A stretch of 64,000 nucleotides of DNA, from the sequence record MZ868638.1; one strand, written 5' to 3'. A program made the position numbers and the translations under genes. Shown piece by piece: positions 34-42,372 of the stretch (position 1 is the first letter of the stretch; every line of letters begins with the position of its first letter). Origin of the DNA: Escherichia phage vB_EcoM-pEK20. The notes below the pieces were generated by a model. It saw only the letters and a list, made by a program, of their open reading frames with translations. It was not told the origin of the DNA and searched no databases.

Positions 34-315
34 ATGAAAACATATAGTGAATTTTTATCAGAATCTATTCTTAACGAAGCTACTGACACATTTGCAACTA
101 AGCTAGGTGCAGCTTTGGTTGAAGCTGAAAGTTTATTAGCACGTATTTCTGAACTTGCTAGTAAGATAGATACTCGCAAATTTGAGCGCACCAGTGATAT
201 CGTTAAGCTTGAAGCCTTGTTGCGTATGTGCGATAAACCGGAAGAAATCGCTAAGAACGGCTCGCTGATGAAACAACGTCTTGAAAAATATATTTCAGGC
301 GCTTCAGAAAAATAG
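34..315 (+). CDS. Internal-protein-like, capsid-targeted (N-terminal CTS MKTYSEFLSE)
   Basis: ORF 19-315, internal ATG at 34; N-terminus matches T4 internal protein capsid targeting sequence MKTYQEFIAE with LxE prohead protease site; sits upstream of denV like ipII/ipIII. Confidence 0.5.
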   Translation: MKTYSEFLSESILNEATDTFATKLGAALVEAESLLARISELASKIDTRKFERTSDIVKLEALLRMCDKPEEIAKNGSLMKQRLEKYISGASEK

Positions 316-316
316 T

Positions 317-346
317 GTTTACTTCCTCCAAGGGTTTTGATACTAT
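317..346 (+). promoter_or_regulatory. T4-type early promoter (GTTTAC -35, TACTAT -10); spacer TTCCTCCAAG is inverted repeat of RBS region CTTGGAGGAA at 361-370
   Basis: GTTTAC at 317-322, 18-nt spacer, TACTAT at 341-346, immediately upstream of denV. Confidence 0.45.
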
Positions 347-373
347 ACATTCATCAACTACTTGGAGGAAATT

Positions 374-787
374 ATGACTCGTATCAATTTAACACTTGTT
401 TCTGAACTGGCCGACCAACATCTTATGGCTGAGTATCGTGAATTACCACGCGTATTTGGTGCAGTCCGTAAACATGTTCAAAACGGTAAACGTGTAAAGG
501 ATTTTAAAATCTCTCCAACATTTATCTTAGGCACAGGTCACGTAACATTCTTTTACGACAAACTCGAATTTTTACGTTTACGCCAAATCGAGCTAATCGC
601 TGAATGCTTGAAACGTGGTTTCAAAATCAAGGACACGACTGTCCAGGATATTTCCGACATCCCTGCCGAATTTCGTAATAATTATGTCCCGTCCGAAGCG
701 TCCATTGCGATAAGTCAAGCACGCTTAGATGAAAAAATTGCTCAACGTCCGACTTGGTACAAATACTATGGTAAATCAATTTACTAA
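374..787 (+). CDS. denV: Endonuclease V, pyrimidine-dimer DNA glycosylase / AP lyase
   Basis: Protein [35 protein letters not shown]... is near-identical to T4 DenV as recalled; start at internal ATG 374 of ORF 362-787. Confidence 0.95.
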
Positions 788-793
788 GGAAAA

Positions 794-910
794 ATGAAAA
801 TGTATCAAGAATTTATCATTGAAGCAGAGGCCAAAGGTCCTAAAGTAGATGTTGACGATATTGGATATGATTTTAACAACTTCGGAATTATTTCTGGCGG
901 TAAAGCTTAA
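794..910 (+). CDS. Small CTS-tagged peptide (38 aa), internal-protein-like
   Basis: ATG 794, MKMYQEFIIEAEAKGPK...; same N-terminal motif as neighbouring ORFs; below the 60-aa cut-off of the ORF track. Confidence 0.35.
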   Translation: MKMYQEFIIEAEAKGPKVDVDDIGYDFNNFGIISGGKA

Positions 911-913
911 ACG

Positions 914-943
914 GTTTACGCTTAAGTATTAATATGGTATAAT
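914..943 (+). promoter_or_regulatory. T4-type early promoter
   Basis: GTTTAC 914-919, TATAAT 938-943, upstream of ORF 974. Confidence 0.4.
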
Positions 944-973
944 TGCTCTATCAAAACAAACAAGGAAACAAAA

Positions 974-1288
974 ATGAAAACCTATAAAGAATTTATTGCA
1001 GAATCCGCCAACCAACGCGTTGAAGGTGGTTATATTTGGATTGAACAAGTTGAGCCACCGAGCCGCACTTCTACAGGTAAATGGAAAATTACTGTTGATG
1101 GTCCTGGTGGTAAACGTAGGACTCTTAAAGAAATTAATGGGTACTATGAAGAAGCTCTTTCGGATGCAGGAACTTACATGATGCAAATCATGATTAAAAA
1201 CCCTGAAAACCGTTTTGCAGCTAAAGTCTTCCGCCGTATTGGTAATAAACTTTATGATGCATATTCTAAAAACTTCCCTAAAGAATAA
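974..1288 (+). CDS. Internal-protein-like, capsid-targeted (CTS MKTYKEFIAE), 104 aa
   Basis: N-terminal CTS motif; rest has no family I can name. Confidence 0.5.
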   Translation: MKTYKEFIAESANQRVEGGYIWIEQVEPPSRTSTGKWKITVDGPGGKRRTLKEINGYYEEALSDAGTYMMQIMIKNPENRFAAKVFRRIGNKLYDAYSKNFPKE

Positions 1289-1314
1289 CATAAATTAAAA
1301 CAATAGGAAAAAAA

Positions 1315-1617
1315 ATGAAAACATATCAAGAATTTATTACTGAAGCGCGAGTGAGTGCAGGTAAATTAGAAGCCGCTATAAATAAAAAGGCCCATTCATT
1401 TCATGATTTGTCCGATAAAGACCGTAAGAAACTTGTAAGCCTTTATATTGACAAAGAGCGTATTCTCGCTCTTCCTGGCGCTAATGAAGGTAAACAGGCC
1501 AAGCCTTTGAATGCCGTCGAAAAGAAAATTGATAACTTTGCTTCTAAATTCGGTATGTCTATGGATGACCTTCAGCAAGCGGCTATCGAAGCAGCTAAAG
1601 TAATTAAAGGTAAATAA
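1315..1617 (+). CDS. Internal protein (T4 IP family), CTS MKTYQEFITE
   Basis: 100 aa; N-terminus and body resemble T4 internal protein sequences as recalled. Confidence 0.55.
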   Translation: MKTYQEFITEARVSAGKLEAAINKKAHSFHDLSDKDRKKLVSLYIDKERILALPGANEGKQAKPLNAVEKKIDNFASKFGMSMDDLQQAAIEAAKVIKGK

Positions 1618-1804: not shown

Positions 1805-1946
1805 AATGGGAACAACCTGGACCTCATGATTCTATGAGGGATTCCCGCCAACCTGTAATAAGGTCGAGCCCAAGTGCGGTAATGGGTAAATACAGAAATG
1901 GACAATTCATGCGCCACGGAACGGCCCCAACCTTAAGAGAAACTAA

Positions 1947-2486
1947 ATGAGAACATTTTTAACCGGACCTTATCTATCCCTGATGAATGCTTTTACACAC
2001 CATTCTGATGCTAGAGTAGAAGAAATTTGTAAGAACGGTTATGCCCCACCATTTGAAGACGTACTCAAGCAGTACTGTACACTTCGTTTAGACGGTGGCA
2101 GACAATCCGGTAAATCAATTGCTGTGACTAATTTTGCTGCTAATTGGTTGTATGATGGCGGAACGGTTATTGTTCTTTCTAATACTTCAGCTTATGCTAA
2201 AATTTCTGCTGGCAACATTGAAAAAGAATTTTCTCGTTATTCTAGCGACGATATTCGATTCCGTTTATTTACTGATTCTGTTCGTAGTTTTATTGGTAAT
2301 GAAGGACATAAATTCCGTGGATTAACACTTTCTCGTATTCTGTACATAATTGACGAGCCTATTAAAGCTCCTGATATGGATAAGATTTACGACATCCATA
2401 TTAAAACAGTCCAACACTGTTGCAAAAGCAAATATTGCATCGGCGGTAATGCTCGTCCTCAATTTTTTGTGATTGGAATGCAATGA
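1947..2486 (+). CDS. Small P-loop NTPase (Walker A GGRQSGKS, Walker B ILYIIDEP)
   Basis: Motifs read from translation; family not assignable by eye. Confidence 0.4.
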   Translation: MRTFLTGPYLSLMNAFTHHSDARVEEICKNGYAPPFEDVLKQYCTLRLDGGRQSGKSIAVTNFAANWLYDGGTVIVLSNTSAYAKISAGNIEKEFSRYSSDDIRFRLFTDSVRSFIGNEGHKFRGLTLSRILYIIDEPIKAPDMDKIYDIHIKTVQHCCKSKYCIGGNARPQFFVIGMQ

Positions 2487-2791
2487 TGACCGCTATTGAA
2501 GTTTTTGAGTACTGTTATAACAGCCCAGTATGCAATAAAAGGGCCCTTGTAGAAAATTATGAGATTTACCATTTTAAACCTAAACGATACCGTTTGACTA
2601 AAGGTCCGTTCGCAGGGCAGCAGGTTCTTTGTACTGCTCCTAATGCACGGTTGATGACTAGTATTCCACATTTCAAAATGGAATTTATTGATGGGCCATT
2701 TAAAGGATTAATCACTCAAAGTTTAATGGCGTTTAATTCCGACCCATTTTTGATTAAAGAAAAAACTTGGATAAATTTATTTTCTAATTGA
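2483..2791 (+). CDS. Hypothetical protein, start overlaps stop of upstream NTPase (ATGA)
   Basis: ORF with overlapping start/stop suggesting translational coupling. Confidence 0.3.
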   Translation: MMTAIEVFEYCYNSPVCNKRALVENYEIYHFKPKRYRLTKGPFAGQQVLCTAPNARLMTSIPHFKMEFIDGPFKGLITQSLMAFNSDPFLIKEKTWINLFSN

Positions 2792-2797
2792 GGTTAT

Positions 2798-3160
2798 ATG
2801 AAAGCATATCAAATTCTTGAAGGTGAACATAAAGGCACTATTTATTTTGAAGACGGTACTCAAGCCCGGATTATTGTCTCTAAGACTTTTAAAGAAGACA
2901 CTATTGTAGACCCGGAAATTTTCTACGGTTTGAATGCTCGTGAAATTGAAATTGAACATCAACCTAAAGTTAAAATTGAAGGTGGTCAACACCTGAACGT
3001 TAACGTTCTGCGTCGCGAAACTCTGGAAGATGCAGTTAAGCATCCAGAAAAATATCCGCAGCTGACCATCCGTGTATCCGGTTATGCAGTTCGCTTTAAC
3101 TCTCTGACTCCGGAACAGCAGCGCGACGTTATCGCTCGTACCTTTACCGAGAGTCTATAA
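2798..3160 (+). CDS. Autonomous glycyl radical cofactor (GrcA/YfiD-like)
   Basis: C-terminal ~58 aa [59 protein letters not shown] matches E. coli GrcA as recalled, including the glycyl-radical motif RVSGY. Confidence 0.85.
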
Positions 3161-3384
3161 TGGCTAAATTGATTATAGAAGGGTCTGAAGATGTTTTAAA
3201 ATGTTTTGCCGCCTGGTTTAGTTGCCCAGGCGAGCAATCATTCATTGAAGCATTTAGAACGGGTGATATTACTGGAAACTATCCGACAACTGATATCACT
3301 GTACGTGGATATGGTATTAATGAGCCTATCCAATTGGTCGAATATGACCTTGCCACCGATGAGGAAATTCCTTATGTCGATTGA
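3160..3384 (+). CDS. Hypothetical protein
   Basis: ORF only. Confidence 0.3.
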   Translation: MAKLIIEGSEDVLKCFAAWFSCPGEQSFIEAFRTGDITGNYPTTDITVRGYGINEPIQLVEYDLATDEEIPYVD

Positions 3385-3619
3385 AGACATCAAAGGCTAC
3401 AAGCCGCATACCGATGATAAAATCGGTAAAGTGAACGCTATTAAAGATGCCGAAGTTCGTTTAGGACTTATTCTAGACGCCCTGGCAGAAGAAGCATTAT
3501 CAGCAAATACTCCTGAAGCTCTGACGGCTTTGTCCCAATTGAACTGTGCTAAAGAACGCCTAAAGGAAGCTAGTATGTGGGCTTGTCGTGCGGTATTTCA
3601 ACCAGAGGAAAAATACTAA
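3374..3619 (+). CDS. Hypothetical protein
   Basis: Internal ATG of ORF 3206-3619, overlaps upstream stop. Confidence 0.3.
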
Positions 3620-3918
3620 TGGCTCAAATCCTATCAGGCTTTGGAACTCATTATGAAGCATCTCGACGCATAACTGAAAGCAATCCTTTTGGCCTTGTTC
3701 CGAAGCACAAGAAAATTCAAAGCCTTGATGACTTTGAGAATCGCCTATGGGCCCTCTTTAATGAGTACAAGGCATATCTGAAAGAAGACGCTGACGATTG
3801 TCTTGAAGAAGATGAGATTGCGTATTACGAACAACGCCTTGAACAGCTCAAGAACTTCCACCAGGTTCGTGACGAAGTATCTAAAGCAGTTAAAAAGTTA
3901 ATTCCTTTCAAAGAGTAG
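3619..3918 (+). CDS. Hypothetical protein
   Basis: ATG 3619 overlapping upstream stop (TAATG). Confidence 0.3.
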
Positions 3919-3946
3919 TTTACTTCTCCTCTAGTTGTGTTACTAT
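3918..3946 (+). promoter_or_regulatory. T4-type early promoter with stem-loop (PeSL-like)
   Basis: GTTTAC 3918-3923, TACTAT 3941-3946; arm TTCTCCTCTAGTTG 3924-3937 pairs with CAACTAGAGGAGAA 3955-3968. Confidence 0.45.
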
Positions 3947-3974
3947 AGACCTGTCAACTAGAGGAGAAATCAAA

Positions 3975-4433
3975 ATGACTATCAATTCAGACGTTTTTAT
4001 CCGCCGCAATAAACTCCGTCGAATCTTTGAAACGGAGTTCCGCAAAATAAATGCCAGTATAAAAGATGCTGCAAAGTCTCTTGGACTACCGGGCTTTCAT
4101 ATCAAGTATTCTCAACATCTCTTAGATCGTGCCATCCAGAGAGAAATAGATGAGAATTACGTTTTTGAATTATTTCATAAAGTAAAAAATCATGTTAAAG
4201 AAGTTGCAGAATTTTTATCAATGCCGGCACGTCCAGATGTTGATGAAGATTTTGTCGAAGGTGTCGAATATCGCCCAGGCCGTTTAGAAATAACTGATGG
4301 AAATCTTTGGTTAGGACTTACAGTTTGTCGCGAAAATCCAGCATTCAAAATGAAGACTCTTCAATGCAGAATGGCTATTATTAACAATAAACGACTACCA
4401 GGAAAAGCTTCTAAAGCAGTGATTAAAATCTAG
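3975..4433 (+). CDS. regB: RegB-like sequence-specific endoribonuclease
   Basis: 152 aa; resembles T4 RegB as recalled and lies between denV and tk. Confidence 0.55.
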   Translation: MTINSDVFIRRNKLRRIFETEFRKINASIKDAAKSLGLPGFHIKYSQHLLDRAIQREIDENYVFELFHKVKNHVKEVAEFLSMPARPDVDEDFVEGVEYRPGRLEITDGNLWLGLTVCRENPAFKMKTLQCRMAIINNKRLPGKASKAVIKI

Positions 4434-35818: not shown

Positions 35819-36454
35819 ATGAAAACTACTCCTATTACTATCGCTATTGACGCAATCATAAAACAAGCTTCTTCTTTGGCCGCTATGGCCAAAGTAATTA
35901 GTCAAAACCCTGCTCGTTATAATGCTATTCTAGAAACTCTTCGACGCCCGGGACTTAGTAATTATGAAAGTCGTGTAATTATTACAGGTGTGGGTAAGAA
36001 TGCTAATATTGCAACTAAAGCTTCTGAGACATTTGCTTCACTTGGTATCCCGAGTATGTACTTGAACACCGGGCATTATTCTCACGGTGATGCAGGATTC
36101 ATTGCGCCTAATGATGTGTTGATTCATATTAGTCGTTCTGGTAAAACTGAAGAAATGATAGGCGTGGCTAAGCATCTTAAAATGATTCGTCCGAACGTCA
36201 AACAGATTCTGTTGCATTGTAACCCAGACATTCCACAAGAAAATGAAGCCCTTTTTGATTACTCTTTCTGTACAGGCATCGCAGTAGAGGTTGATGAGAA
36301 TTCTCTGGCTCCGACTATGTCCACTACATTGTTGTTAGCGCTTATCGATACGTTTGCTATCAACCTTTCGTCTGAACGTGGATTTACCTCTAATGACTTC
36401 CTTAAGTTCCACCCTGGCGGTGCACTAGGTGCCATGTTACGAGGCGAACAATGA
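35819..36454 (+). CDS. SIS-domain sugar-phosphate isomerase, KdsD/GutQ-like (D-arabinose-5-phosphate isomerase family)
   Basis: GVGKNANIATKASETFASLGIPS...HGDAGF...HISRSGKTEE...LAPTMSTT...RGFTSNDFLKFHPGGALG parallels the E. coli KdsD SIS domain motif for motif. Confidence 0.75.
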   Translation: MKTTPITIAIDAIIKQASSLAAMAKVISQNPARYNAILETLRRPGLSNYESRVIITGVGKNANIATKASETFASLGIPSMYLNTGHYSHGDAGFIAPNDVLIHISRSGKTEEMIGVAKHLKMIRPNVKQILLHCNPDIPQENEALFDYSFCTGIAVEVDENSLAPTMSTTLLLALIDTFAINLSSERGFTSNDFLKFHPGGALGAMLRGEQ

Positions 36455-36635
36455 AAGCAATAACAATAGGACTTTTACTATTGATGCTTGTCATGACTAT
36501 CTACTGGAGCTTAACGGCTCCAGTAATGATTCCGACTCTTATAATCGGATGGATTATGATTGGACTACAAGCAAAGTATGAATGCTTTAACTAGAATAGT
36601 GTACAATACTCCTACTTACCAATGAGGACCACAAC

Positions 36636-38324
36636 ATGAAAAAAGCTGTTATTCTTGGTGCTGGACTGGCAACTCGTTTGTATCCAATAACGCATCATAT
36701 TCCTAAGGTGCTTGTTAACTATAAACAAGACACTATTCTGAGCAATTTGTATACAATTTATTCTGACCTTGGCGCAGATGAAATTATTGTAGTAGTTCAT
36801 TCAAAATTTGCTGAAACTGTTCGAGCTTATTGTGAGCAAGAAGGGTTCAATGTGACTATTCGTACAGTTGATGAAGCGTATGGTTCCGCTTATGCTCTTG
36901 CTAAATTACACAAAGATTTAGACGGCCATAATGTAATTGTTAACTGGTGTGATATTATTCCCGATTTTGGTTCATGGTCTTGGAATGTTAACGCAATCTA
37001 TGTTAAGGGCGACGAATGTCGTTATAATTTCGACGGTGAAAATATCACTAACGTAGGTTCAACAGGTGGTAATGTTGTAGGAATTTATCAGTTCAAAGAC
37101 TGGGAATTCTATATGGGTTCTACTGATGAGGAAATTCATGAATACTGCAAAGGACGTGATTTCGTAGAATTCCTTTACGGCAGCGCATTCAATAAATCAG
37201 AGCTTATGAATATCATCGACCTTGGTGATATGCCTAAACTTGAAAAAGCTCATGAAGTTCGTGAACTTAATCGTAGTTTTAATGCAGTTGAAATTGGCGA
37301 AGAAACGGTAACAAAGATTGCTTTAACAGAACAGGGCGTTGCACTTCAAAAAGATGAAGTCAATTGGTATAAGAAAGTTAAATCAGATTCAGTTCCACGG
37401 ATTGTAAGTTATCATCCTGGCGGCCACTTTATTATGGAACGCATTAAAGGTAAGCCAGCATTTGAATATATTAAATCCAAATCGAGTCTTGCTCGTCCAC
37501 AAATTGTTGATGCAATTTTAGACGCACTGAAATTCAGCACAGACACTTATTTTGTAAGTCCTGAAACTGTTCGTCGTGATTTCACTAAAGAATTCTATAC
37601 GAAAGTTATTGATCGTTGTGAAAGTATTCAACCATTGATTGATTCATTTGGTAAAATCACACATGTGAACTACACTAAGATTGGGCGTCTGAAGCCAATG
37701 CTGAAACAAGCTTTAGAACACCTTATTCGTTATCATAACCGTTCTCAGGGACAGTACTCTGTTATTCATGGTGACCCGAACTTCAGTAATACTATGATTA
37801 CTGATAATGGTGAAGTCAAGTTTATCGACCCTCGTGGATATTTTGGTGAAACCAAGATTTATGGGCCAAAATTGTATGATGAAGCTAAAGTGCTTTATGC
37901 TGTTTCAGGTTATGATGAATTCAACGCTAATCCGACCTGGGGTCAGTTTACTATTGATGAAACAACTTGTAATGTGACTATTAACATCAATCCATTAGTT
38001 TACAAATATGGAAAGATGAGTTCGTTTAATGAGTATCATCATTTGGCTGTAGCAATTATCTGGATTGCATTAGGTGGTTATTTCAAGAATAATCCACTTA
38101 AAGCGGTAGCCGCATATTATAAAGGTATGGAACTTCTGACTAAGCAATTACGTAACATGGGCCGTGTACTTCAGGACGGCACTATTAGTTATGATGTAGC
38201 AGAACCTGTAACGGCTACTCTGATTACAAAAAATCCTGGTAAATGGGTACTAACTGATAAAGAAACTGGTGTTTCTTATCGTCCAATCGGTGGCGATATC
38301 ACTCATCAATGGGAACGAATCTAA
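36636..38324 (+). CDS. Bifunctional sugar-1-phosphate nucleotidyltransferase (N-term) / APH-like sugar kinase (C-term)
   Basis: N-term KAVILGAGLATRLYPIT...PKVL is the GxGTRLxPxT nucleotidyltransferase signature; C-term IHGDPNFSNTMI plus KFIDPRGYFG is the HGDxxxxN / D-x-G catalytic pair of APH/choline-kinase-fold kinases. Confidence 0.7.
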   Translation: MKKAVILGAGLATRLYPITHHIPKVLVNYKQDTILSNLYTIYSDLGADEIIVVVHSKFAETVRAYCEQEGFNVTIRTVDEAYGSAYALAKLHKDLDGHNVIVNWCDIIPDFGSWSWNVNAIYVKGDECRYNFDGENITNVGSTGGNVVGIYQFKDWEFYMGSTDEEIHEYCKGRDFVEFLYGSAFNKSELMNIIDLGDMPKLEKAHEVRELNRSFNAVEIGEETVTKIALTEQGVALQKDEVNWYKKVKSDSVPRIVSYHPGGHFIMERIKGKPAFEYIKSKSSLARPQIVDAILDALKFSTDTYFVSPETVRRDFTKEFYTKVIDRCESIQPLIDSFGKITHVNYTKIGRLKPMLKQALEHLIRYHNRSQGQYSVIHGDPNFSNTMITDNGEVKFIDPRGYFGETKIYGPKLYDEAKVLYAVSGYDEFNANPTWGQFTIDETTCNVTININPLVYKYGKMSSFNEYHHLAVAIIWIALGGYFKNNPLKAVAAYYKGMELLTKQLRNMGRVLQDGTISYDVAEPVTATLITKNPGKWVLTDKETGVSYRPIGGDITHQWERI

Positions 38325-38710
38325 TGCACCGTGTAGAAAACATGCTTAATCTTTGTTTTGATGTCGATGATTGTATAACAGAGTGGAATAACAACCGTGA
38401 TTACGTGAACTTCAAACCAGACGTCGAAATGGTGACTGCCATTAATGCCCTGTACGATGCAGGGCATACCATAACGCTTTACACTGCTCGCGGTATGAAG
38501 TCAGTCGGTCCTGGTCGTATAGCAATTGACATTCTCCCAAGTCTGATTCAGAACTTGGCAAACATTGGATTGAAGTACCATAATTTGCTAACACATAAAC
38601 CAGTATATGATTGGATTATCGACGACAAAGCTATGCGTCCTGACGAATTCAAAGCTCTTATGAATAAAGGCGAATTCGAAACATTTAAATCGTATAAACC
38701 GAATCTATAA
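38324..38710 (+). CDS. HAD-superfamily phosphatase, KdsC-like
   Basis: FDVDDCIT (KdsC FDVDGVLT), TLYTAR, IIDDKAM (motif IV DD); start 38324 overlaps upstream stop, alternative 38309. Confidence 0.6.
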   Translation: MHRVENMLNLCFDVDDCITEWNNNRDYVNFKPDVEMVTAINALYDAGHTITLYTARGMKSVGPGRIAIDILPSLIQNLANIGLKYHNLLTHKPVYDWIIDDKAMRPDEFKALMNKGEFETFKSYKPNL

Positions 38711-38766
38711 TAATTTAAGTAAGACCTGCAAAAACCATCGCGTCAATTAACGTGAGATGCAAAAAA

Positions 38767-39927
38767 ATGAATACTTTTAAAATCGGAACGAATTTTGATT
38801 TAGCTCTTCTTGATAAAATCGTAGAGCTCAATAAAACTTATCCTAATAGCTTGATAAACGAAGTATACGGCTCTACAAGAGAAATGGCTTTTGTAGCAGC
38901 CAGACCTGATTTTAGGCTTCCTGACGTTGACAAAAAGATGTTAGAAGATTACGTTAAACGTTGTAACGAATTAGGTATTTGCTTTAACTATACACTCAAC
39001 ACGATAAATCCTGGTTCAAAAAGAGAACTAGTTGAGTGGAAGAAGAAAGCTATTCAGGATTATGTTCAGTATCTTTGGTCAATAGGCGTATGGCGTATTA
39101 CTATCGCTAACCCTGTTGTTATGGAAATTGTTCGTGAAGTCAATAAAGACATTGAGATTGAAGTTTCAACAATTCTACATGTCGATGCTGTAACTCAAAT
39201 CAAATACTTGCATGACCAGTATAATATCAAAAAGGTCTGCTGTGGAATTCATAAGAACCGTTCGGTTTCTTTCCTGAAGCGTGCAGCAGAGTTTTGCAAT
39301 AAGAACAATATAATATTTGAAGTTCTTGTAAATGAGTTCTGTTCTAATGCTGGTAAAGGGTATACAACACATTGTAGCTATCGTGACTCTTGCTATATTT
39401 TCCATAGTACTGATGTTACCGCTGATGATGCTAAATCCTTAAATGGATATCCAATGCAACACTGCATTAAAGCTCGTGATACAGATCCATTTAACTGGTT
39501 GAGAACTCGTTTTGTTCGTCCTCAAGATTTGAAACTTTATAATGATATTGGTATCACTCAATTCAAAGTTTCAGGACGTACAGGTAGCACAGACTACATT
39601 TTGAAAGTTCTTGAAGCTTATGCTTCCGAAAAATTTGAAGGTAATTTGTTGGAATTGTGGAAGCCTTTAGAGACCATTTTCACTCTTGAAAATGAGACCG
39701 AGTTTTCACATACGGTAAATATTGAAACCTCTTTGTTAGATGGCTTTTTAGAAAAAAGGTGGTTCAGACATCCAGATTTCGATTGTGCTAATGAAATCTG
39801 TGGGACGACGTGTACATATTGTGAAAGATATTATAAACGTCAATTATCTAAAAATGGGTTATCAGAAAACTCTATATCTATTATTGATATAACTAACTCT
39901 GACGACGCTTTGAGGTACCCAGAATGA
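38767..39927 (+). CDS. Cys-rich enzyme of unknown family (possible Fe-S/metal-binding)
   Basis: Central Cys cluster KVCCGIH...EFCNKNN...EFCSNAGKGYTTHCSYRDSCY and C-terminal CANEICGTTCTYCERYY; fold not assignable by eye. Confidence 0.4.
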   Translation: MNTFKIGTNFDLALLDKIVELNKTYPNSLINEVYGSTREMAFVAARPDFRLPDVDKKMLEDYVKRCNELGICFNYTLNTINPGSKRELVEWKKKAIQDYVQYLWSIGVWRITIANPVVMEIVREVNKDIEIEVSTILHVDAVTQIKYLHDQYNIKKVCCGIHKNRSVSFLKRAAEFCNKNNIIFEVLVNEFCSNAGKGYTTHCSYRDSCYIFHSTDVTADDAKSLNGYPMQHCIKARDTDPFNWLRTRFVRPQDLKLYNDIGITQFKVSGRTGSTDYILKVLEAYASEKFEGNLLELWKPLETIFTLENETEFSHTVNIETSLLDGFLEKRWFRHPDFDCANEICGTTCTYCERYYKRQLSKNGLSENSISIIDITNSDDALRYPE

Positions 39928-40206
39928 TTTCTAGAAAAACTTTTAACCACCAACTTAATGAAGAGATTTTGACTATGAAAATTAACAGCAACGAACAAAT
40001 TCTTAAAAAGGCCCTTATGGGCCTGTTTGAAACCAAAGCGGCTTAAAGTGATTAAAGAACCTGTTCAATTGTAATACTACGCTGATGCATTTCTTCATAG
40101 TGTCCTTGGAAGTATCGATGCCGAAGCTCTACGTTATATCAACATCGCTAAGAAATTCAAATAAGCTTTATGAATTGAGTATATAATAAATTGTATTGAG
40201 GTAAAC

Positions 40207-40923
40207 ATGGGAAAACATAACACAATGAAATATATTAAAGCCGCAGATTTTCAATCCGCATTTAAAGCTGTCAATCGTGAAATTTTAGAAAACCCGGAAT
40301 TCGTAACTGATTCTCGTATTGGACGTTGTAATGAAATTGGGTCTATGACAGTAGTTGTTGACACTCCATCATCATTCAAAATGACCGACCCACGTATTAA
40401 CCGCATCTCTTATGAATATGCTGAAGACTTCTGGAAGTTTATGGTTTCTGGTGGTACTGATGCAGAAGAAGCATTTAAGGCATATCCTAACGTTGCTAAA
40501 TTTATTTCTAAACCTAAATCAGACGCTTTGCCTGCAAACTTCAACACTTTCTACGGTCCACGAATTGCGGCCCAATTACCAGCTCTTTTAAAAGAACTTA
40601 AAGAGAAGCCTAACTCTCGAAGAGTTGTGTTTCAAATTCTTGAAAGTTCTGATCAGGCTTTGCTTGATTCGGACGAAACGCTTGAATATCCATGTACTGA
40701 CTCAGTGACTTATTATATTCGTGATGGTAAGCTTTATACCCACTGCCATATGCGTTCTCAGAACTGTGCTGTTGTTATGCAGTTGGATTTTTATCTCCAA
40801 GGAAAATTACTTCATTATATCGCTAACGAATGTGGTGTAGAAGTTGGTGATTATACTCATACCATGGTAAGTGCCCATGTGTTTGAACGTGATTTTGATT
40901 ATGTTAAAGGATTCCTTGACTAA
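40207..40923 (+). CDS. 42: Thymidylate-synthase-fold pyrimidine hydroxymethylase (gp42-like, divergent)
   Basis: KPNSRRVVFQIL (TS NPxSRR), YPCTDSV (nucleophile PC), MRSQNCAVVMQLD (TS RSxD...N/D specificity position is Asp); position equals T4 gene 42. Confidence 0.65.
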   Translation: MGKHNTMKYIKAADFQSAFKAVNREILENPEFVTDSRIGRCNEIGSMTVVVDTPSSFKMTDPRINRISYEYAEDFWKFMVSGGTDAEEAFKAYPNVAKFISKPKSDALPANFNTFYGPRIAAQLPALLKELKEKPNSRRVVFQILESSDQALLDSDETLEYPCTDSVTYYIRDGKLYTHCHMRSQNCAVVMQLDFYLQGKLLHYIANECGVEVGDYTHTMVSAHVFERDFDYVKGFLD

Positions 40924-41822
40924 TGGCTATTTTCCGCGTACCTATCTTGAGTATGCGGTCTTATGAAACTGGACAGTATGCTATCCTTAAGGATGGCAAC
41001 TTCCAACTTCATTTGCACCGTGCTAATCCAGGTGATGTGATTACATATCCACGTAATGCATCTGATATTAAAGAATGTGAACGTCTTTTCCCAGAATTTA
41101 AGTTTGTTCCATTATGGTATAAAGATAACGCGTATAACACTCGTAAATATTTCTGGTCTGAAAATGAATTTGTGGTTGATTCATTAATTGCTTATTATGA
41201 TTGTGATTTTCTAATAACAGATATCACTGGATATGATGGTGCTTTTGATGTAGAATTCAATTTCAATATCACCGCAGACCCTAATAAACCGCGTTTTTAT
41301 ATTGACGAATTCTTAAAAACCGACATGTTGTCGGTTAATCGTTCACTTCAAACTACTGTGTTGAATGAACGTCAAAAGGAAGTGCTGGTTAACGCTGGTG
41401 CGGATGGTAATAAGATTATCGTAACGCAGAAAGTTATACGTCCTTCCATCATGCAGCGTCTTGTAGGTGATTTGGCTCCTATTCATCTAGATGGTATTTT
41501 TCATCCATTTCGAATTAGTGACCCGTGCTATCGTTTTGAACAAGTGGTTGAATGTGCAATTCAATTAGGCCAACCGCTTTATATAACCGATCCAAATAAT
41601 AGCTTCGACAGAAATAAGTATCCTGAAGAAGCGCTGATTCGAATTTTTAAACCAACTAAAACCGAGTACTATCAAATTCTTAAAGGACGTCCAAAGATTC
41701 AATATTTCGAAAATCCTGAAGAAGTATTCCATCCAGGTCTTGGTGAGTTCATCTACTTTAATGCTTTAATTTCTTCGCCGTATAATATACCTAAATACGA
41801 AGATGTCGTAATCGAGGAATAA
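40923..41822 (+). CDS. Hypothetical protein at the T4 beta-gt position
   Basis: 299 aa; no motif I can assign. Confidence 0.35.
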   Translation: MAIFRVPILSMRSYETGQYAILKDGNFQLHLHRANPGDVITYPRNASDIKECERLFPEFKFVPLWYKDNAYNTRKYFWSENEFVVDSLIAYYDCDFLITDITGYDGAFDVEFNFNITADPNKPRFYIDEFLKTDMLSVNRSLQTTVLNERQKEVLVNAGADGNKIIVTQKVIRPSIMQRLVGDLAPIHLDGIFHPFRISDPCYRFEQVVECAIQLGQPLYITDPNNSFDRNKYPEEALIRIFKPTKTEYYQILKGRPKIQYFENPEEVFHPGLGEFIYFNALISSPYNIPKYEDVVIEE

Positions 41823-41823
41823 A

Positions 41824-42372
41824 ATGGCTAAAATTATTTTAGTAGATGGCCCGGATAATGCTGGTAAAACAACTTTCATTAATGACATAATGGAAATTAG
41901 TGAAAGATATGTAAAGATTGATTTCCCTAAACGAACGGTTGATGGACGTTTCGATGTTAAGTCTCGAAATGAAGTTGGCTGTTTCGAAACGATGCTGAAT
42001 TATTTAGACCCTACTAAGATTTATCTGTTAGATCGTGGATATATTAGTAACTGGGTTTACGGACGTATTCGACAAGATGCGGACTCGGTTCTTGACGTTT
42101 ATGAACAGGATTATGTTCGTCTTTGCCAAAACCATGATGTGTTCACAATTATTTTAACACGTAACGAAATGACTGAAAGTTTTGAAGACGACCTTATTAC
42201 TTTGTCTTCATTCGGTTTTAATACAGTAATTTCATATTTTGAAGAGTTTGCAATCCATAACGAAATCCAAACGTATCAATTACTTAATCATGATGGTGCT
42301 AACAAAGTTATAGGATTTAATGCAAGCGAACGTAATAATTTGATTACAGAAATTATCAAATGGGCTCGTTAA
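41824..42372 (+). CDS. Tmk-like P-loop nucleoside monophosphate kinase
   Basis: IILVDGPDNAGKTT Walker A and LLDRGYISNWVYG resemble thymidylate kinase DRY motif region. Confidence 0.45.
   Translation: MAKIILVDGPDNAGKTTFINDIMEISERYVKIDFPKRTVDGRFDVKSRNEVGCFETMLNYLDPTKIYLLDRGYISNWVYGRIRQDADSVLDVYEQDYVRLCQNHDVFTIILTRNEMTESFEDDLITLSSFGFNTVISYFEEFAIHNEIQTYQLLNHDGANKVIGFNASERNNLITEIIKWAR

Follow-up and report, generated by a model that had tools for sequence, protein, structure and literature searches.

An internal-protein hotspot with four genes headed by a capsid targeting sequence around denV in Escherichia phage vB_EcoM-pEK20

A hotspot for internal-protein (ip) genes at e-denV-vs.8, and the ip polymorphism found there, were reportedly described by Repoila et al. 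in 1994. In T4, the targeting of internal proteins to the head, their cleavage, their copy number, their injection and their inhibition of GmrSD enzymes have all been demonstrated in the literature. Mutagenesis of T4 IPIII has assigned targeting to residues 4 and 7 and processing by gp21 to residues 8 and 10, and the gp21 prohead protease cuts after L/I-x-E (PMC9026906). Each of the T4 proteins Ip1, Ip2 and Ip3 inhibits one GmrSD variant, the target of Ip2, shown in 2025, being the BREX-embedded GmrSD/BrxU of ECOR21 (PMC12373910), and IpIII is required on ECOR17 (PMC9391042).

Here, we have tried to place one locus among these precedents: which genes does it hold, what do they have in common with the internal proteins of T4 and how did they come to stand side by side? 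The stretch of DNA analyzed, which we call the window, is 64 kb long; phage JS09 matches it at 98.4%, and it belongs to Mosigvirus, the RB69/JS09 group of T-even phages. The region of interest is the e-denV-vs.8 ip hotspot of a T4-like (RB69-group) phage and has already been described. The array is not new: the locus has been known since 1994, and studies from 2007 to 2025 established its part in anti-restriction. Its features are these:

1-37, + strand: 3' end of the lysozyme gene e (the JS09 annotation puts the end of e at window position 37).
34-315, + strand: ORF 34, Ip5-family internal head protein, 93 aa (phrog_3499, "internal head protein," E = 1e-46).
318-370, + strand: PeSL-like element, made of an early promoter, TTTACT-N17-TACTAT (318-346), and a stem-loop (323-370).
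374-787, + strand: intact denV, encoding the pyrimidine-dimer DNA glycosylase (endonuclease V), 137 aa (Pfam Pyr_excise, 52.5 bits; phrog_1183, E = 2e-62).
794-910, + strand: ORF 794, ORF125c-type Ip, 38 aa, tag MKMYQEFIIE (phrog_35655).
915-943, + strand: strong early-type promoter, TTTACG-N17-TATAAT, with an extended -10 TG, upstream of Ip10.
974-1288, + strand: ORF 974, Ip10, 104 aa, tag MKTYKEFIAE (JS09 note, "Ip10; similar to CAA84455 Ip10 [phage Pol]").
1309-1346, + strand: tag-coding repeat of ipII with its Shine-Dalgarno sequence, a recombination joint (blastn breakpoints).
1315-1617, + strand: ORF 1315, IpII (Ip2) ortholog, 100 aa, tag MKTYQEFITE (phrog_7857, E = 4.5e-55).
1621-1773, + strand: remnant of the resident (T4-position) denV, a promoter/stem-loop followed by the first 32 denV codons and a stop (1675-1773).
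1808-1946, + strand: homologue of the T4 denV 3' flank and vs.8 5' region (match of 1808-4213 to T4 downstream of denV, 77%).
1947-2486, + strand: vs.8, the conserved right-hand border of the hotspot (phrog_1488, E = 2e-78, and JS09 annotation).

The order in the window, e / ip / denV / ip / ip / ip / denV' / vs.8, can be laid beside the e-ipIII-ipII-denV-vs.8 of T4, and the ip genes stand in the same position in both, this being the first of the two hotspots for ip genes, e-denV-vs.8 and 57B-tRNA. At the left border, the stop codon TGA of e (35-37) and the start codon ATG of the first ip gene share letters in ATGA. The original prediction had the array flanking denV, and it does, with denV (374-787) between ORF 34 and the other three; its inventory of four ORFs was also right, but it overlooked that ORF 1315 is IpII, that ORF 794 is a deletion remnant and that a second, truncated denV lies at 1675-1773. 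Near-identical loci in JS09 and many other phages are annotated IpII, Ip10 and internal head protein, and the annotations of JS09, phi25-307 and VR25 at this locus name internal head or virion proteins. An Rfam search of the whole window gave no match. Genes 21 and 22 (the gp21 protease and gp22 scaffold core) fall outside the 64-kb window, whose close relatives are complete T4-like genomes.

What the four genes share is a tag, the capsid targeting sequence (CTS) of T4. The pattern MK[TM]Y[SKQ]EF[IL].E occurs exactly four times in the six frames of the 64-kb window, each time at the start of one of these ORFs, and the looser M[KR].Y.[ED]F[ILVM].E likewise finds these same four starts and nothing else. 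The common start MK(T/M)Y(S/K/Q)EF(I/L)xE that had been claimed for the ORFs at 34, 794, 974 and 1315 is therefore real, with coordinates and strand (+) correct. All four read M-K-[TM]-Y-x-E-F, with Y4, F7, [IL]8 and E10 in every one; the identification of these N-termini with the T4 sequence holds as well, since each keeps the IPIII positions 4, 7, 8 and 10 (PMC9026906), including an aromatic residue at 4 and Phe at 7. In each, a gp21-type L/I-x-E site is followed by a small residue: LSE/S, IIE/A, IAE/S and ITE/A, where the slash marks the expected cut. As DNA, the first 30-36 nt of the four ORFs are 77-89% identical, and an AGGA-type ribosome-binding site lies 6-9 nt upstream of each start. 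Beyond the tag, the likeness ends: it is limited to the N-terminal 11-28 residues, and when the bodies (residue 11 to the end) were compared with each other by BLASTP, the best E value was 1.2, which bears out the earlier claim that they are mutually unrelated. A chance likeness of the N-termini was also considered and was ruled out, with 0 tag matches in 200 shuffles.

The bodies can, nevertheless, be named by their relatives elsewhere. ORF 1315 matches T4 IpII along its whole length of 100 residues with 93% identity (E = 2e-66); ORF 974 is 72-73% identical to Ip10 of VR25 and SP18 and 96-100% identical to that of many coliphages; ORF 34 is 47-52% identical to Ip5 of T2, RB32 and VR26. The ORF125c-type protein has no Ip number, and its RefSeq relatives are annotated internal head protein. 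Apart from the PHROG Ip families, searches of the four proteins against Pfam, NCBIfam and PDB sequences yielded no significant match; a hit to DUF7412 was weak and confined to the tag. For annotation, the value is in the labels: Ip5-like, ORF125c-type Ip (deleted allele), Ip10 and IpII.

From what the present analysis shows, namely the signals in the sequence, the orthology, the identity of the locus and the breakpoints of recombination, we argue that this e-to-vs.8 hotspot with its four CTS-headed genes very probably encodes proteins that are packaged in the head, injected and used against restriction, and that are reshuffled by recombination. That these particular four are packaged and injected, and what each of them acts on, we infer. 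The ten-residue CTS would bind the assembling scaffold core, so that the proteins would be built into the prohead; gp21 would cleave after L/I-x-E at residues 8-10, and in the Ip5-family protein, which has a second such site (LNE/A at residues 13-15), the cut may also or instead fall there. The putative mature forms are about 78-83 aa with a pI of 6.3 for ORF 34, 28 aa for ORF 794, 94 aa with a pI of 9.6 for ORF 974 and 90 aa with a pI of 9.7 for ORF 1315. These products would remain in the head with the DNA, enter the host with it and act before the phage's own genes are expressed. The canonical late promoter TATAAATA was found upstream of none of the four ip genes, its sole regional copy lying inside ipII, and because only early-type promoters are visible at these genes, their late-stage synthesis, at head assembly, is presumed from T4. 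As a general statement, the claim that a diversified array of this kind encodes injected anti-restriction proteins matches the published view (PMC3012670; PMC9391042; PMC12373910).

Could the proteins instead be mainly structural, serving as basic counter-ions to the DNA or as scaffold helpers in head assembly rather than in anti-defence? In T4, the internal proteins are present at about 300 copies each, are basic, bind to DNA when the salt concentration is low and purify together with gp22, and IPIII mutants assemble heads at half the rate and give a burst of about 40% of normal (PMC9026906); Ip10 and IpII here, at pI 9.6-9.7, would fit that part. We consider this very unlikely, however, because the T4 proteins are dispensable on laboratory hosts (PMC9026906), because all three have specific GmrSD targets and host-expressed IpIII without its CTS still rescues infection (PMC9391042, PMC12373910) and because the Ip5-like and ORF125c-type proteins (the latter with a pI of 4.4-4.9) are, unlike classical internal proteins, not basic. 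The extreme turnover of cassettes with unrelated bodies is, moreover, the pattern of genes in an arms race and not that of structural components.

If the array is aimed at restriction, what does each member inhibit? In a comparison with T4 IpII and IpIII, only ORF 1315 proved orthologous to an Ip with a demonstrated GmrSD target, T4 Ip2; the likeness of ORFs 34, 794 and 974 to these two ended with the CTS. By analogy with Ip2, IpII most likely blocks a BrxU-type GmrSD, a type IV restriction enzyme, and such enzymes do act on phages of this group: arabinosylated Mosigvirus DNA is a substrate of BrxU, which also restricts a Mosigvirus (PMC13390438), and RB69 DNA is cut by GmrSD enzymes (PMC6024577). 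IpII would, on the same analogy, predict resistance to BrxU-type GmrSD and so bear on the host range of Mosigvirus phages in therapy collections. For Ip10 and the Ip5-like protein, the most likely role is stoichiometric inhibition of other host nucleases that act early. Silas et al. tested ten ip genes, and Ip4-Ip10 of other T-evens gave no reproducible inhibition across a panel of GmrSD variants (PMC12373910, main text and Supplementary Fig. 9). With that panel negative, reading Ip10 and the Ip5-like protein as GmrSD inhibitors is a matter of analogy.

ORF 794 is probably a decaying allele. Aligned to an 86-aa homologue in phage W143, it has a 144-bp in-frame internal deletion between two GTCCTAAA repeats, which leaves 38 aa, against 86 aa in the full-length RB69ORF125c-type Ip, and takes away 48 of 76 mature residues with the CTS intact. 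In RB69, Ip10 (ORF124c) is C-terminally truncated to 90 aa, and two further homologues have damaged tags, ORF127c being frameshifted through the CTS and ORF123c lacking E10. Within such arrays, function is maintained in some members and lost in others. One might suppose, then, that the array is mostly decaying baggage, with IpII alone functional and the rest hitch-hiking in a recombination hotspot. The deletion in ORF 794, the dead denV copy in the same locus, the damage in RB69 and the inactivity of Ip4-Ip10 against the GmrSD variants tested all lean in this direction. We nevertheless think it unlikely. At 95% identity or more, the Ip5-like protein recurs in 232 phage records and Ip10 in 131, with reading frames intact across several genera; in about 30 phage records, even the short ORF 794 allele (at least 90% identity) is still in frame and still has its CTS; and the Ip10 family has conserved core residues and a confidently predicted fold. 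An initial Ip10 homologue search gave 3 clusters, and AlphaFold2 run on a 4-sequence alignment reached a pLDDT of only 49; with 11 sequences, the pLDDT was 85.4, for a predicted small alpha/beta fold. Foldseek found no solved relative of that model in the PDB (best E = 0.037, TM 0.39) and, across the PDB and BFVD, matched Ip10's own family only, so the fold offers no functional clue.

The history of the locus can be read in its joints. The intact denV product is 92% identical to T4 DenV, and the remnant farther downstream is 82% identical in amino acids to the N-terminus of DenV; the ipII-denV junction is 88% identical as DNA to that of T4, and the body of the resident gene has been deleted between 1774 and about 1807. 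The second, decayed denV preserves a trace of the ancestral gene order, which was like that of T4. The borders of the cassettes coincide with two kinds of site, the end of the 30-mer that encodes the CTS and elements that combine an early promoter with a stem-loop. In three independent comparisons (phi25-307, RB69 and W143), blastn breakpoints, where the homology partner switches, lie at 1337, 1345 and 1346, and seven body families are found among nine loci. The cargo set would thus be reshuffled between phages by recombination in the CTS-coding 30-mers and in PeSL-like elements. We searched for the latter with a regular expression for the PST/T4 consensus TTTACW-N17-TAYWAT (PMC4122927); 318-346 and 915-943 match it, and 1621-1649 (TTTACT-N17-TAGTAT, with a stem-loop, fold z = -2.5) is a degenerate copy, which gives an early promoter and stem-loop at the borders of variable cassettes, as at the cassette borders of the hyperplastic region in other T4-like phages (PMC4122927). 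There are two differences from the PeSL elements described. The stem-loop at 323-370 (inverted repeat I3; fold energy -19.8 kcal/mol, z = -3.3) has the promoter inside it, and its 3' arm takes up and so sequesters the Shine-Dalgarno sequence of denV; and the breakpoints that stand out most clearly are at CTS-coding repeats, not at PeSL-like elements.

The original prediction went further, holding that the array is tuned to a non-glucose modification of hydroxymethylcytosine in the phage's own DNA. Non-glucose stands: neither a-gt nor b-gt is present in the window. A hydroxymethylcytosine derivative it probably is not, 5-hydroxycytosine having been reported; according to papers of 2026, the Mosigvirus modification is arabinose linked to 5-hydroxycytosine (PMC13326640, PMC13390438). 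The window's counterpart of gp42 is 24% identical to T4 gp42, a cluster of SIS isomerase, NTP-transferase and thymidylate-synthase-like genes lies at 35.8-42.4 kb and near-identical relatives are annotated with an arabinose-5-phosphate isomerase. The window, that is, belongs to an arabinosylating phage, and some GmrSD enzymes do discriminate between sugars (UTI89 GmrSD restricts RB69 and not T4; PMC6024577), both of which would favor effectors evolved specifically for the arabinosyl modification. The tuning is, however, contradicted by phage W143, which encodes dCMP hydroxymethylase (gp42), alpha-glucosyltransferase and beta-glucosyl-HMC-alpha-glucosyltransferase, with flanks 95% identical to T4, and yet carries counterparts of all four proteins: IpII and the Ip5-like protein at 100% amino acid identity, Ip10 at 99% and the ORF125c-type Ip in its full-length, 86-aa form. 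We checked the modification genes of W143 directly because NCBI genus labels are unreliable; phage F2 is labeled Tequatrovirus, yet has the Mosigvirus arabinose cluster at 97.8%. The ip modules of the window and W143 are 97-98% identical as DNA, whereas the backbones are only about 77% identical; T4 IpII is 93% identical to that of the window, against 62% for gp43; and the IPI proteins of RB69 and T4 differ by four residues (PMC6024577). Cassettes that move nearly unchanged between phages with different sugars cannot be read as an adaptation to the modification of the phage in which they are found, and we give such specific tuning a very slim chance indeed.

The injected anti-restriction reading leaves room for targets of another kind. 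Ip4-Ip10 were negative on the GmrSD panel, and the Ip5-like protein, the ORF125c-type protein and Ip10 may act on non-GmrSD defenses of the first minute. We suggest this only tentatively, together with the equally tentative thought that the CTS might be a widely used delivery label and not peculiar to the T-evens. When viral metagenome contigs were scanned for the CTS as DNA, at least 132 complete CTS-headed ORFs in at least 48 unrelated body families were found. One of these families is a SAM lyase, which Pfam scored at 52 bits and whose surroundings are those of a marine T4-like phage; others are a 2H phosphoesterase and a protein resembling cytidylyltransferases. In cyanophage S-CREM2, a SAM hydrolase and a cytidylyltransferase begin in a CTS-like way (MKDFDSFLEE and MKNFSSFLTE), and both were detected in virions by mass spectrometry by the S-CREM2 authors. 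Enzyme cargo that carries this tag in marine T4-like phages is the one lead of wider reach, and it lies outside the window.

How, finally, do the members of this array compare with the systems nearest to them? Phage P1 offers a parallel at a distance: its Dar proteins are likewise packaged in the capsid, injected with the DNA and protective against restriction (PMC12810830), but they are large proteins of an unrelated phage, which travel by a route without the CTS and its gp21 L-x-E site and are directed at type I restriction-modification. Within the T-evens, ORF 34 shares with Ip5 of T2, T6 and RB32 its PHROG family, its level of identity and the L/I-x-E at residues 13-15; the gene for T2 Ip5, however, belongs to the second ip locus (57B-ip5-ip7-tRNA), and its product has no E10 (MKTFKEFATK), whereas ORF 34 also has the canonical ten-residue CTS, MKTYSEFLSE, and adjoins e, overlapping its stop codon. 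ORF 974 has the family, the locus and the CTS of the T-even Ip10 proteins (Pol CAA84455, SP18 and VR25). ORF 1315 has the ten-residue CTS architecture of T4 IpII and, as in T4, lies directly upstream of denV (here its remnant), with seven substitutions, A9T inside the CTS among them, and in a phage that arabinosylates its DNA, whereas that of T4 is glucosylated. The ipI gene of T4 is in the other ip locus, outside the window, and the Ip10 model has no fold similarity in the PDB, which is expected to include the solved structure of IPI*. It is, nonetheless, T4 IPI* (Ip1), the inhibitor of the GmrSD of E. coli CT596, that provides the paradigm for what the array would do: packaging by CTS, processing by gp21 and injection with the DNA (PMC3012670).

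What are the four small ORFs near the start of the window, and does anything about them belong to this phage in particular? T-even phages have two classical internal-protein loci, and gene order and earlier annotation together identify the region as one of them; T4 has the order e-ipIII-ipII-denV-vs.8 there, and the window has e(3' end)-Ip-denV-Ip-Ip-IpII-denV'-vs.8 (Ip, internal protein; denV', a truncated second denV). Over its first 2.5 kb, the window shares 98.4% identity with Escherichia phage JS09 (a Mosigvirus, RB69 group), and 38 phage records span at least 80% of that stretch. JS09 bears, in order, the labels 'internal head protein', 'RB69ORF125c', 'Ip10; similar to CAA84455 Ip10 [phage Pol]' and 'IpII internal head protein', along with a short 'DenV' fragment similar to CAA84453 (accessions that we take to be the entries of Repoila et al. 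1994). The array was already known, and the original prediction was right in kind, as others had published before; its sole new element, adaptation to the phage's DNA modification, is wrong.

The tagged ORFs, named by start coordinate, and their repeats are as follows:

34-315, + strand: ORF 34, 93 aa, MKTYSEFLSE
794-910, + strand: ORF 794, 38 aa, MKMYQEFIIE
974-1288, + strand: ORF 974, 104 aa, MKTYKEFIAE
1315-1617, + strand: ORF 1315, 100 aa, MKTYQEFITE
1309-1346, 790-825 and 970-1005: tag-coding 30-36-mer repeats

Searched in all six frames, the 64-kb window has the motif, its loosened form included, exactly four times, always at these ORF starts, and 200 shuffles give none, so the shared N-termini are not a matter of chance. 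The four genes have their first 30-36 nt in common as direct repeats (77-89% DNA identity), each behind an AGGA-type ribosome-binding site; from residue 11 onward, the four bodies show no similarity to each other by BLASTP (best E = 1.2), and they had indeed been called unrelated. Intact denV (374-787, 92% identical to T4 DenV) sets ORF 34, upstream, apart from the three downstream, and the array flanks denV as described. In T4 IPIII, the first 10 residues suffice for head incorporation (Black-laboratory work, reviewed in PMC9026906), residues 4 and 7 serving targeting and 8 and 10 processing, and the prohead protease gp21 cuts after L/I-x-E (PMC9026906). Y4, F7, [IL]8 and E10 are present in all four ORFs, with Ala or Ser as the next residue; at these key positions, their N-termini match the T4 capsid targeting sequence (CTS, or tag) with its protease site, as had been proposed.

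Judged by sequence, ORF 1315 is IpII (93% identical to T4 IpII across all 100 residues), and ORF 974 is Ip10 (72-73% identical to Ip10 of VR25 and SP18, with 95-100% identical copies in 131 phage records). ORF 34 is a member of the Ip5 family (phrog_3499, E = 1e-46; 47-52% identity to Ip5 of T2, RB32 and VR26; copies of 95% identity or more in 232 records), and its start codon shares bases with the stop of lysozyme gene e (ATGA, 34-37). The conserved cleavage motif of that family lies at residues 13-15 (LNE in VR25 and RB69, ITE in T2), and T2 Ip5 lacks E10; ORF 34 has both cleavage sites, at residues 8-10 and 13-15. ORF 794 is not a complete gene: against an 86-aa homologue (W143, RB69, phi25-307, VR25), it is missing 48 codons (144 bp), and this deletion, flanked by two GTCCTAAA repeats, preserves reading frame and tag. 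About 30 records carry the short allele with an identity of at least 90%, and it is probably decaying. RB69 has damage of its own, which may reflect true decay or else mistakes in an old sequence: ORF127c, its Ip5-like copy, has a -1/+1 double frameshift across the tag (residues 5-11, MKTYMNFYQNLSLNE), ORF123c begins MKTYQEFIAA, without Glu10, and ORF124c is Ip10 truncated at the C-terminus (90 aa).

L006 (RB69, AY303349) 2923-3204 and 1450-1779, - strand: RB69 homologues with damaged tags (ORF127c, ORF123c)

Could the array nevertheless be tuned to the modification of its own phage, described originally as non-glucose hmC? The genes concerned are these:

35819-42372, + strand: DNA-modification cluster, arabinosylating Mosigvirus type
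35819-36454, + strand: SIS-domain isomerase
36636-38324, + strand: NTP-transferase fusion
38752-39927, + strand: peptidase-U32-family protein
40207-40923, + strand: thymidylate-synthase-fold counterpart of gp42, only 24% identical to T4 gp42

Non-glucose holds, since a-gt and b-gt are absent from the window (though genes neighbouring them are present) and the cluster is there; hmC probably does not, the chemistry having been revised to arabinose on 5-hydroxycytosine (PMC13326640, PMC13390438). Genus labels are unreliable here, because phage F2, labelled Tequatrovirus at NCBI, has the same cluster at 97.8% identity. Tuning fails on phage W143, whose flanks are 95% identical to T4 and whose genes include dCMP hydroxymethylase, alpha-glucosyltransferase and beta-glucosyl-HMC-alpha-glucosyltransferase. 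Between W143 and the window, the DNA of the Ip5-like/denV/ORF125c/Ip10 module is 97-98% identical, on backbones of only about 77% identity; IpII and the Ip5-like protein of the two are 100% identical and Ip10 is 99% identical. T4 shares IpII with the window at 93% and gp43 at 62%. The internal proteins are not specific to the window phage's modification, and phages that differ in their DNA sugar exchange these cassettes.

The traces of that movement lie in the locus itself and in its relatives (seven body families in the nine loci compared):

RB69: Ip5-like, denV, ORF125c, truncated Ip10, ORF123c
phi25-307: six tagged ORFs, IpIII and an ORF123c-like protein among them
VR25: ip5, denV, ip10, ORF125c-like, ip7
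KaAlpha: Ip10-like only
T4: IpIII and IpII

In three independent comparisons (phi25-307, RB69, W143), the homology partner changes at window 1337-1346, the 3' end of the ipII tag-coding 30-mer, which argues that tag-coding DNA also serves as a joint where recombination adds or removes cassettes; compared with phi25-307, the window has lost ipIII by recombination between two such repeats. Promoters and a denV remnant add to the picture:

318-346: early promoter fitting the promoter-early stem-loop (PeSL) consensus of Comeau et al. (PMC4122927)
915-943: early promoter fitting the same consensus
1621-1649: degenerate copy of a PeSL-type promoter
323-370 and 1618-1675, + strand: predicted stem-loops enclosing the early promoter, upstream of denV and of the denV remnant
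1621-1773, + strand: dead second denV (degenerate promoter/stem-loop, 32 codons, stop); intact counterpart 318-470

In the stem-loops predicted around 318-346 (z = -3.3) and 1621-1649 (z = -2.5), the downstream Shine-Dalgarno sequence pairs with the upstream arm, so that read-through transcripts would be translationally masked and loop-started ones would not. This stem-loop arrangement resembles that of T4 gene e. The 32-codon fragment (1675-1773) sits as denV does in T4, straight after ipII and before vs.8; the ipII-denV junction of T4 (88% DNA identity) and, beyond a deletion, the T4 denV 3' flank are preserved, so the ancestral order was T4-like. Intact denV (79% DNA identity to T4) lies 1.3 kb upstream of the fragment, inside the imported module, and the resident denV decayed once that module, bringing its own copy, had arrived. 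In W143, the resident denV is deleted completely.

As for function, T4 heads hold about 300 copies of each internal protein, injected along with the DNA (PMC9026906). IPI* inhibits the GmrSD of CT596, a type IV restriction enzyme, as had been stated (PMC3012670); IpIII is needed on ECOR17 and, expressed in the host, works even without the CTS (PMC9391042); and for each of Ip1, Ip2 and Ip3 a single, different GmrSD variant is the target, with no cross-protection, that of Ip2 being the BREX-embedded GmrSD/BrxU of ECOR21 (Silas et al. 2025, PMC12373910). The idea of an injected anti-restriction array is already published. Ip4-Ip10 gave nothing reproducible on the panel of GmrSD variants in Supplementary Fig. 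9 of PMC12373910. Such enzymes matter to the window phage because GmrSD enzymes cut RB69 DNA (PMC6024577) and BrxU both cuts Mosigvirus DNA that carries arabinose and restricts a Mosigvirus (PMC13390438). We infer that the IpII ortholog (ORF 1315), once injected, would inhibit BrxU-type GmrSD; for Ip10 and the Ip5-like protein, injected as well, the targets may be other early-acting defences. Synthesis of all four during head assembly is assumed by analogy with T4, and none of the genes has a canonical late promoter upstream. An AlphaFold2 model of Ip10 built from 11 sequences (pLDDT 85.4; three strands, a long helix, a beta-hairpin) has no relatives in the PDB (best E = 0.037, TM 0.39) and none among viral models beyond the Ip10 family. 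A fold without relatives is typical for small dedicated inhibitors, and the predicted one gives no pointer to a target.

A neighbour of another kind, the vs.4 homologue (3374-3619, + strand), lies 1.8 kb downstream of the array. It scores 65.5 bits (cutoff 27) against the Acb2/Tad1 hairpin domain of Pfam and is therefore an anti-CBASS gene of the sponge type, putting two kinds of counter-defence gene close together.

How far does the tag reach? IMG/VR, scanned for MKTYxEFIxE written as DNA, yields, as lower bounds, at least 132 complete tagged ORFs (at least 110 unique; 52-610 aa among those listed) in at least 120 loci, often in arrays of 2-4, with at least 48 unrelated body families. Among those listed are an S-AdoMet lyase (Pfam 52 bits, cutoff 28) with gp44, gp45 and cobS homologues as neighbours, as in marine T4-like phages, a 2H phosphoesterase (35, cutoff 27; weak Acb1 similarity), a cytidylyltransferase-like protein (26, cutoff 21) and a zincin-like HEHTH protein (below threshold). 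Examples from IMG/VR loci and two genes of cyanophage S-CREM2 (OR473000) are these:

L125:5077-5904, - strand: tagged IMG/VR example
L011:3988-4524, + strand: tagged IMG/VR example
L072:754-1311, + strand: tagged IMG/VR example
L130:1987-2397, - strand: tagged IMG/VR example
L132:1207-2451, + strand: S-CREM2 gp6
L133:1109-1969, + strand: S-CREM2 gp154

Enzyme cargo elsewhere leaves the verdict on the window unchanged. Mass spectrometry detected the SAM hydrolase (gp6) and cytidylyltransferase (gp154) of S-CREM2 in virions, where they were reported as non-structural proteins, their presence unexplained (PMC10665884). A tag-like start is found in none of three other virion-detected proteins (gp155, gp156, gp160), and among the papers searched, the sole one to combine 'capsid targeting' with 'cyanophage' is a T4 review. 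Both enzymes begin like the tag (gp6 MKDFDSFLEE, gp154 MKNFSSFLTE), with the same key positions 4, 7, 8 and 10. Taken with the IMG/VR families, this suggests that many phages conserve the T4 tag as a label for delivering cargo of diverse kinds, including enzymes.
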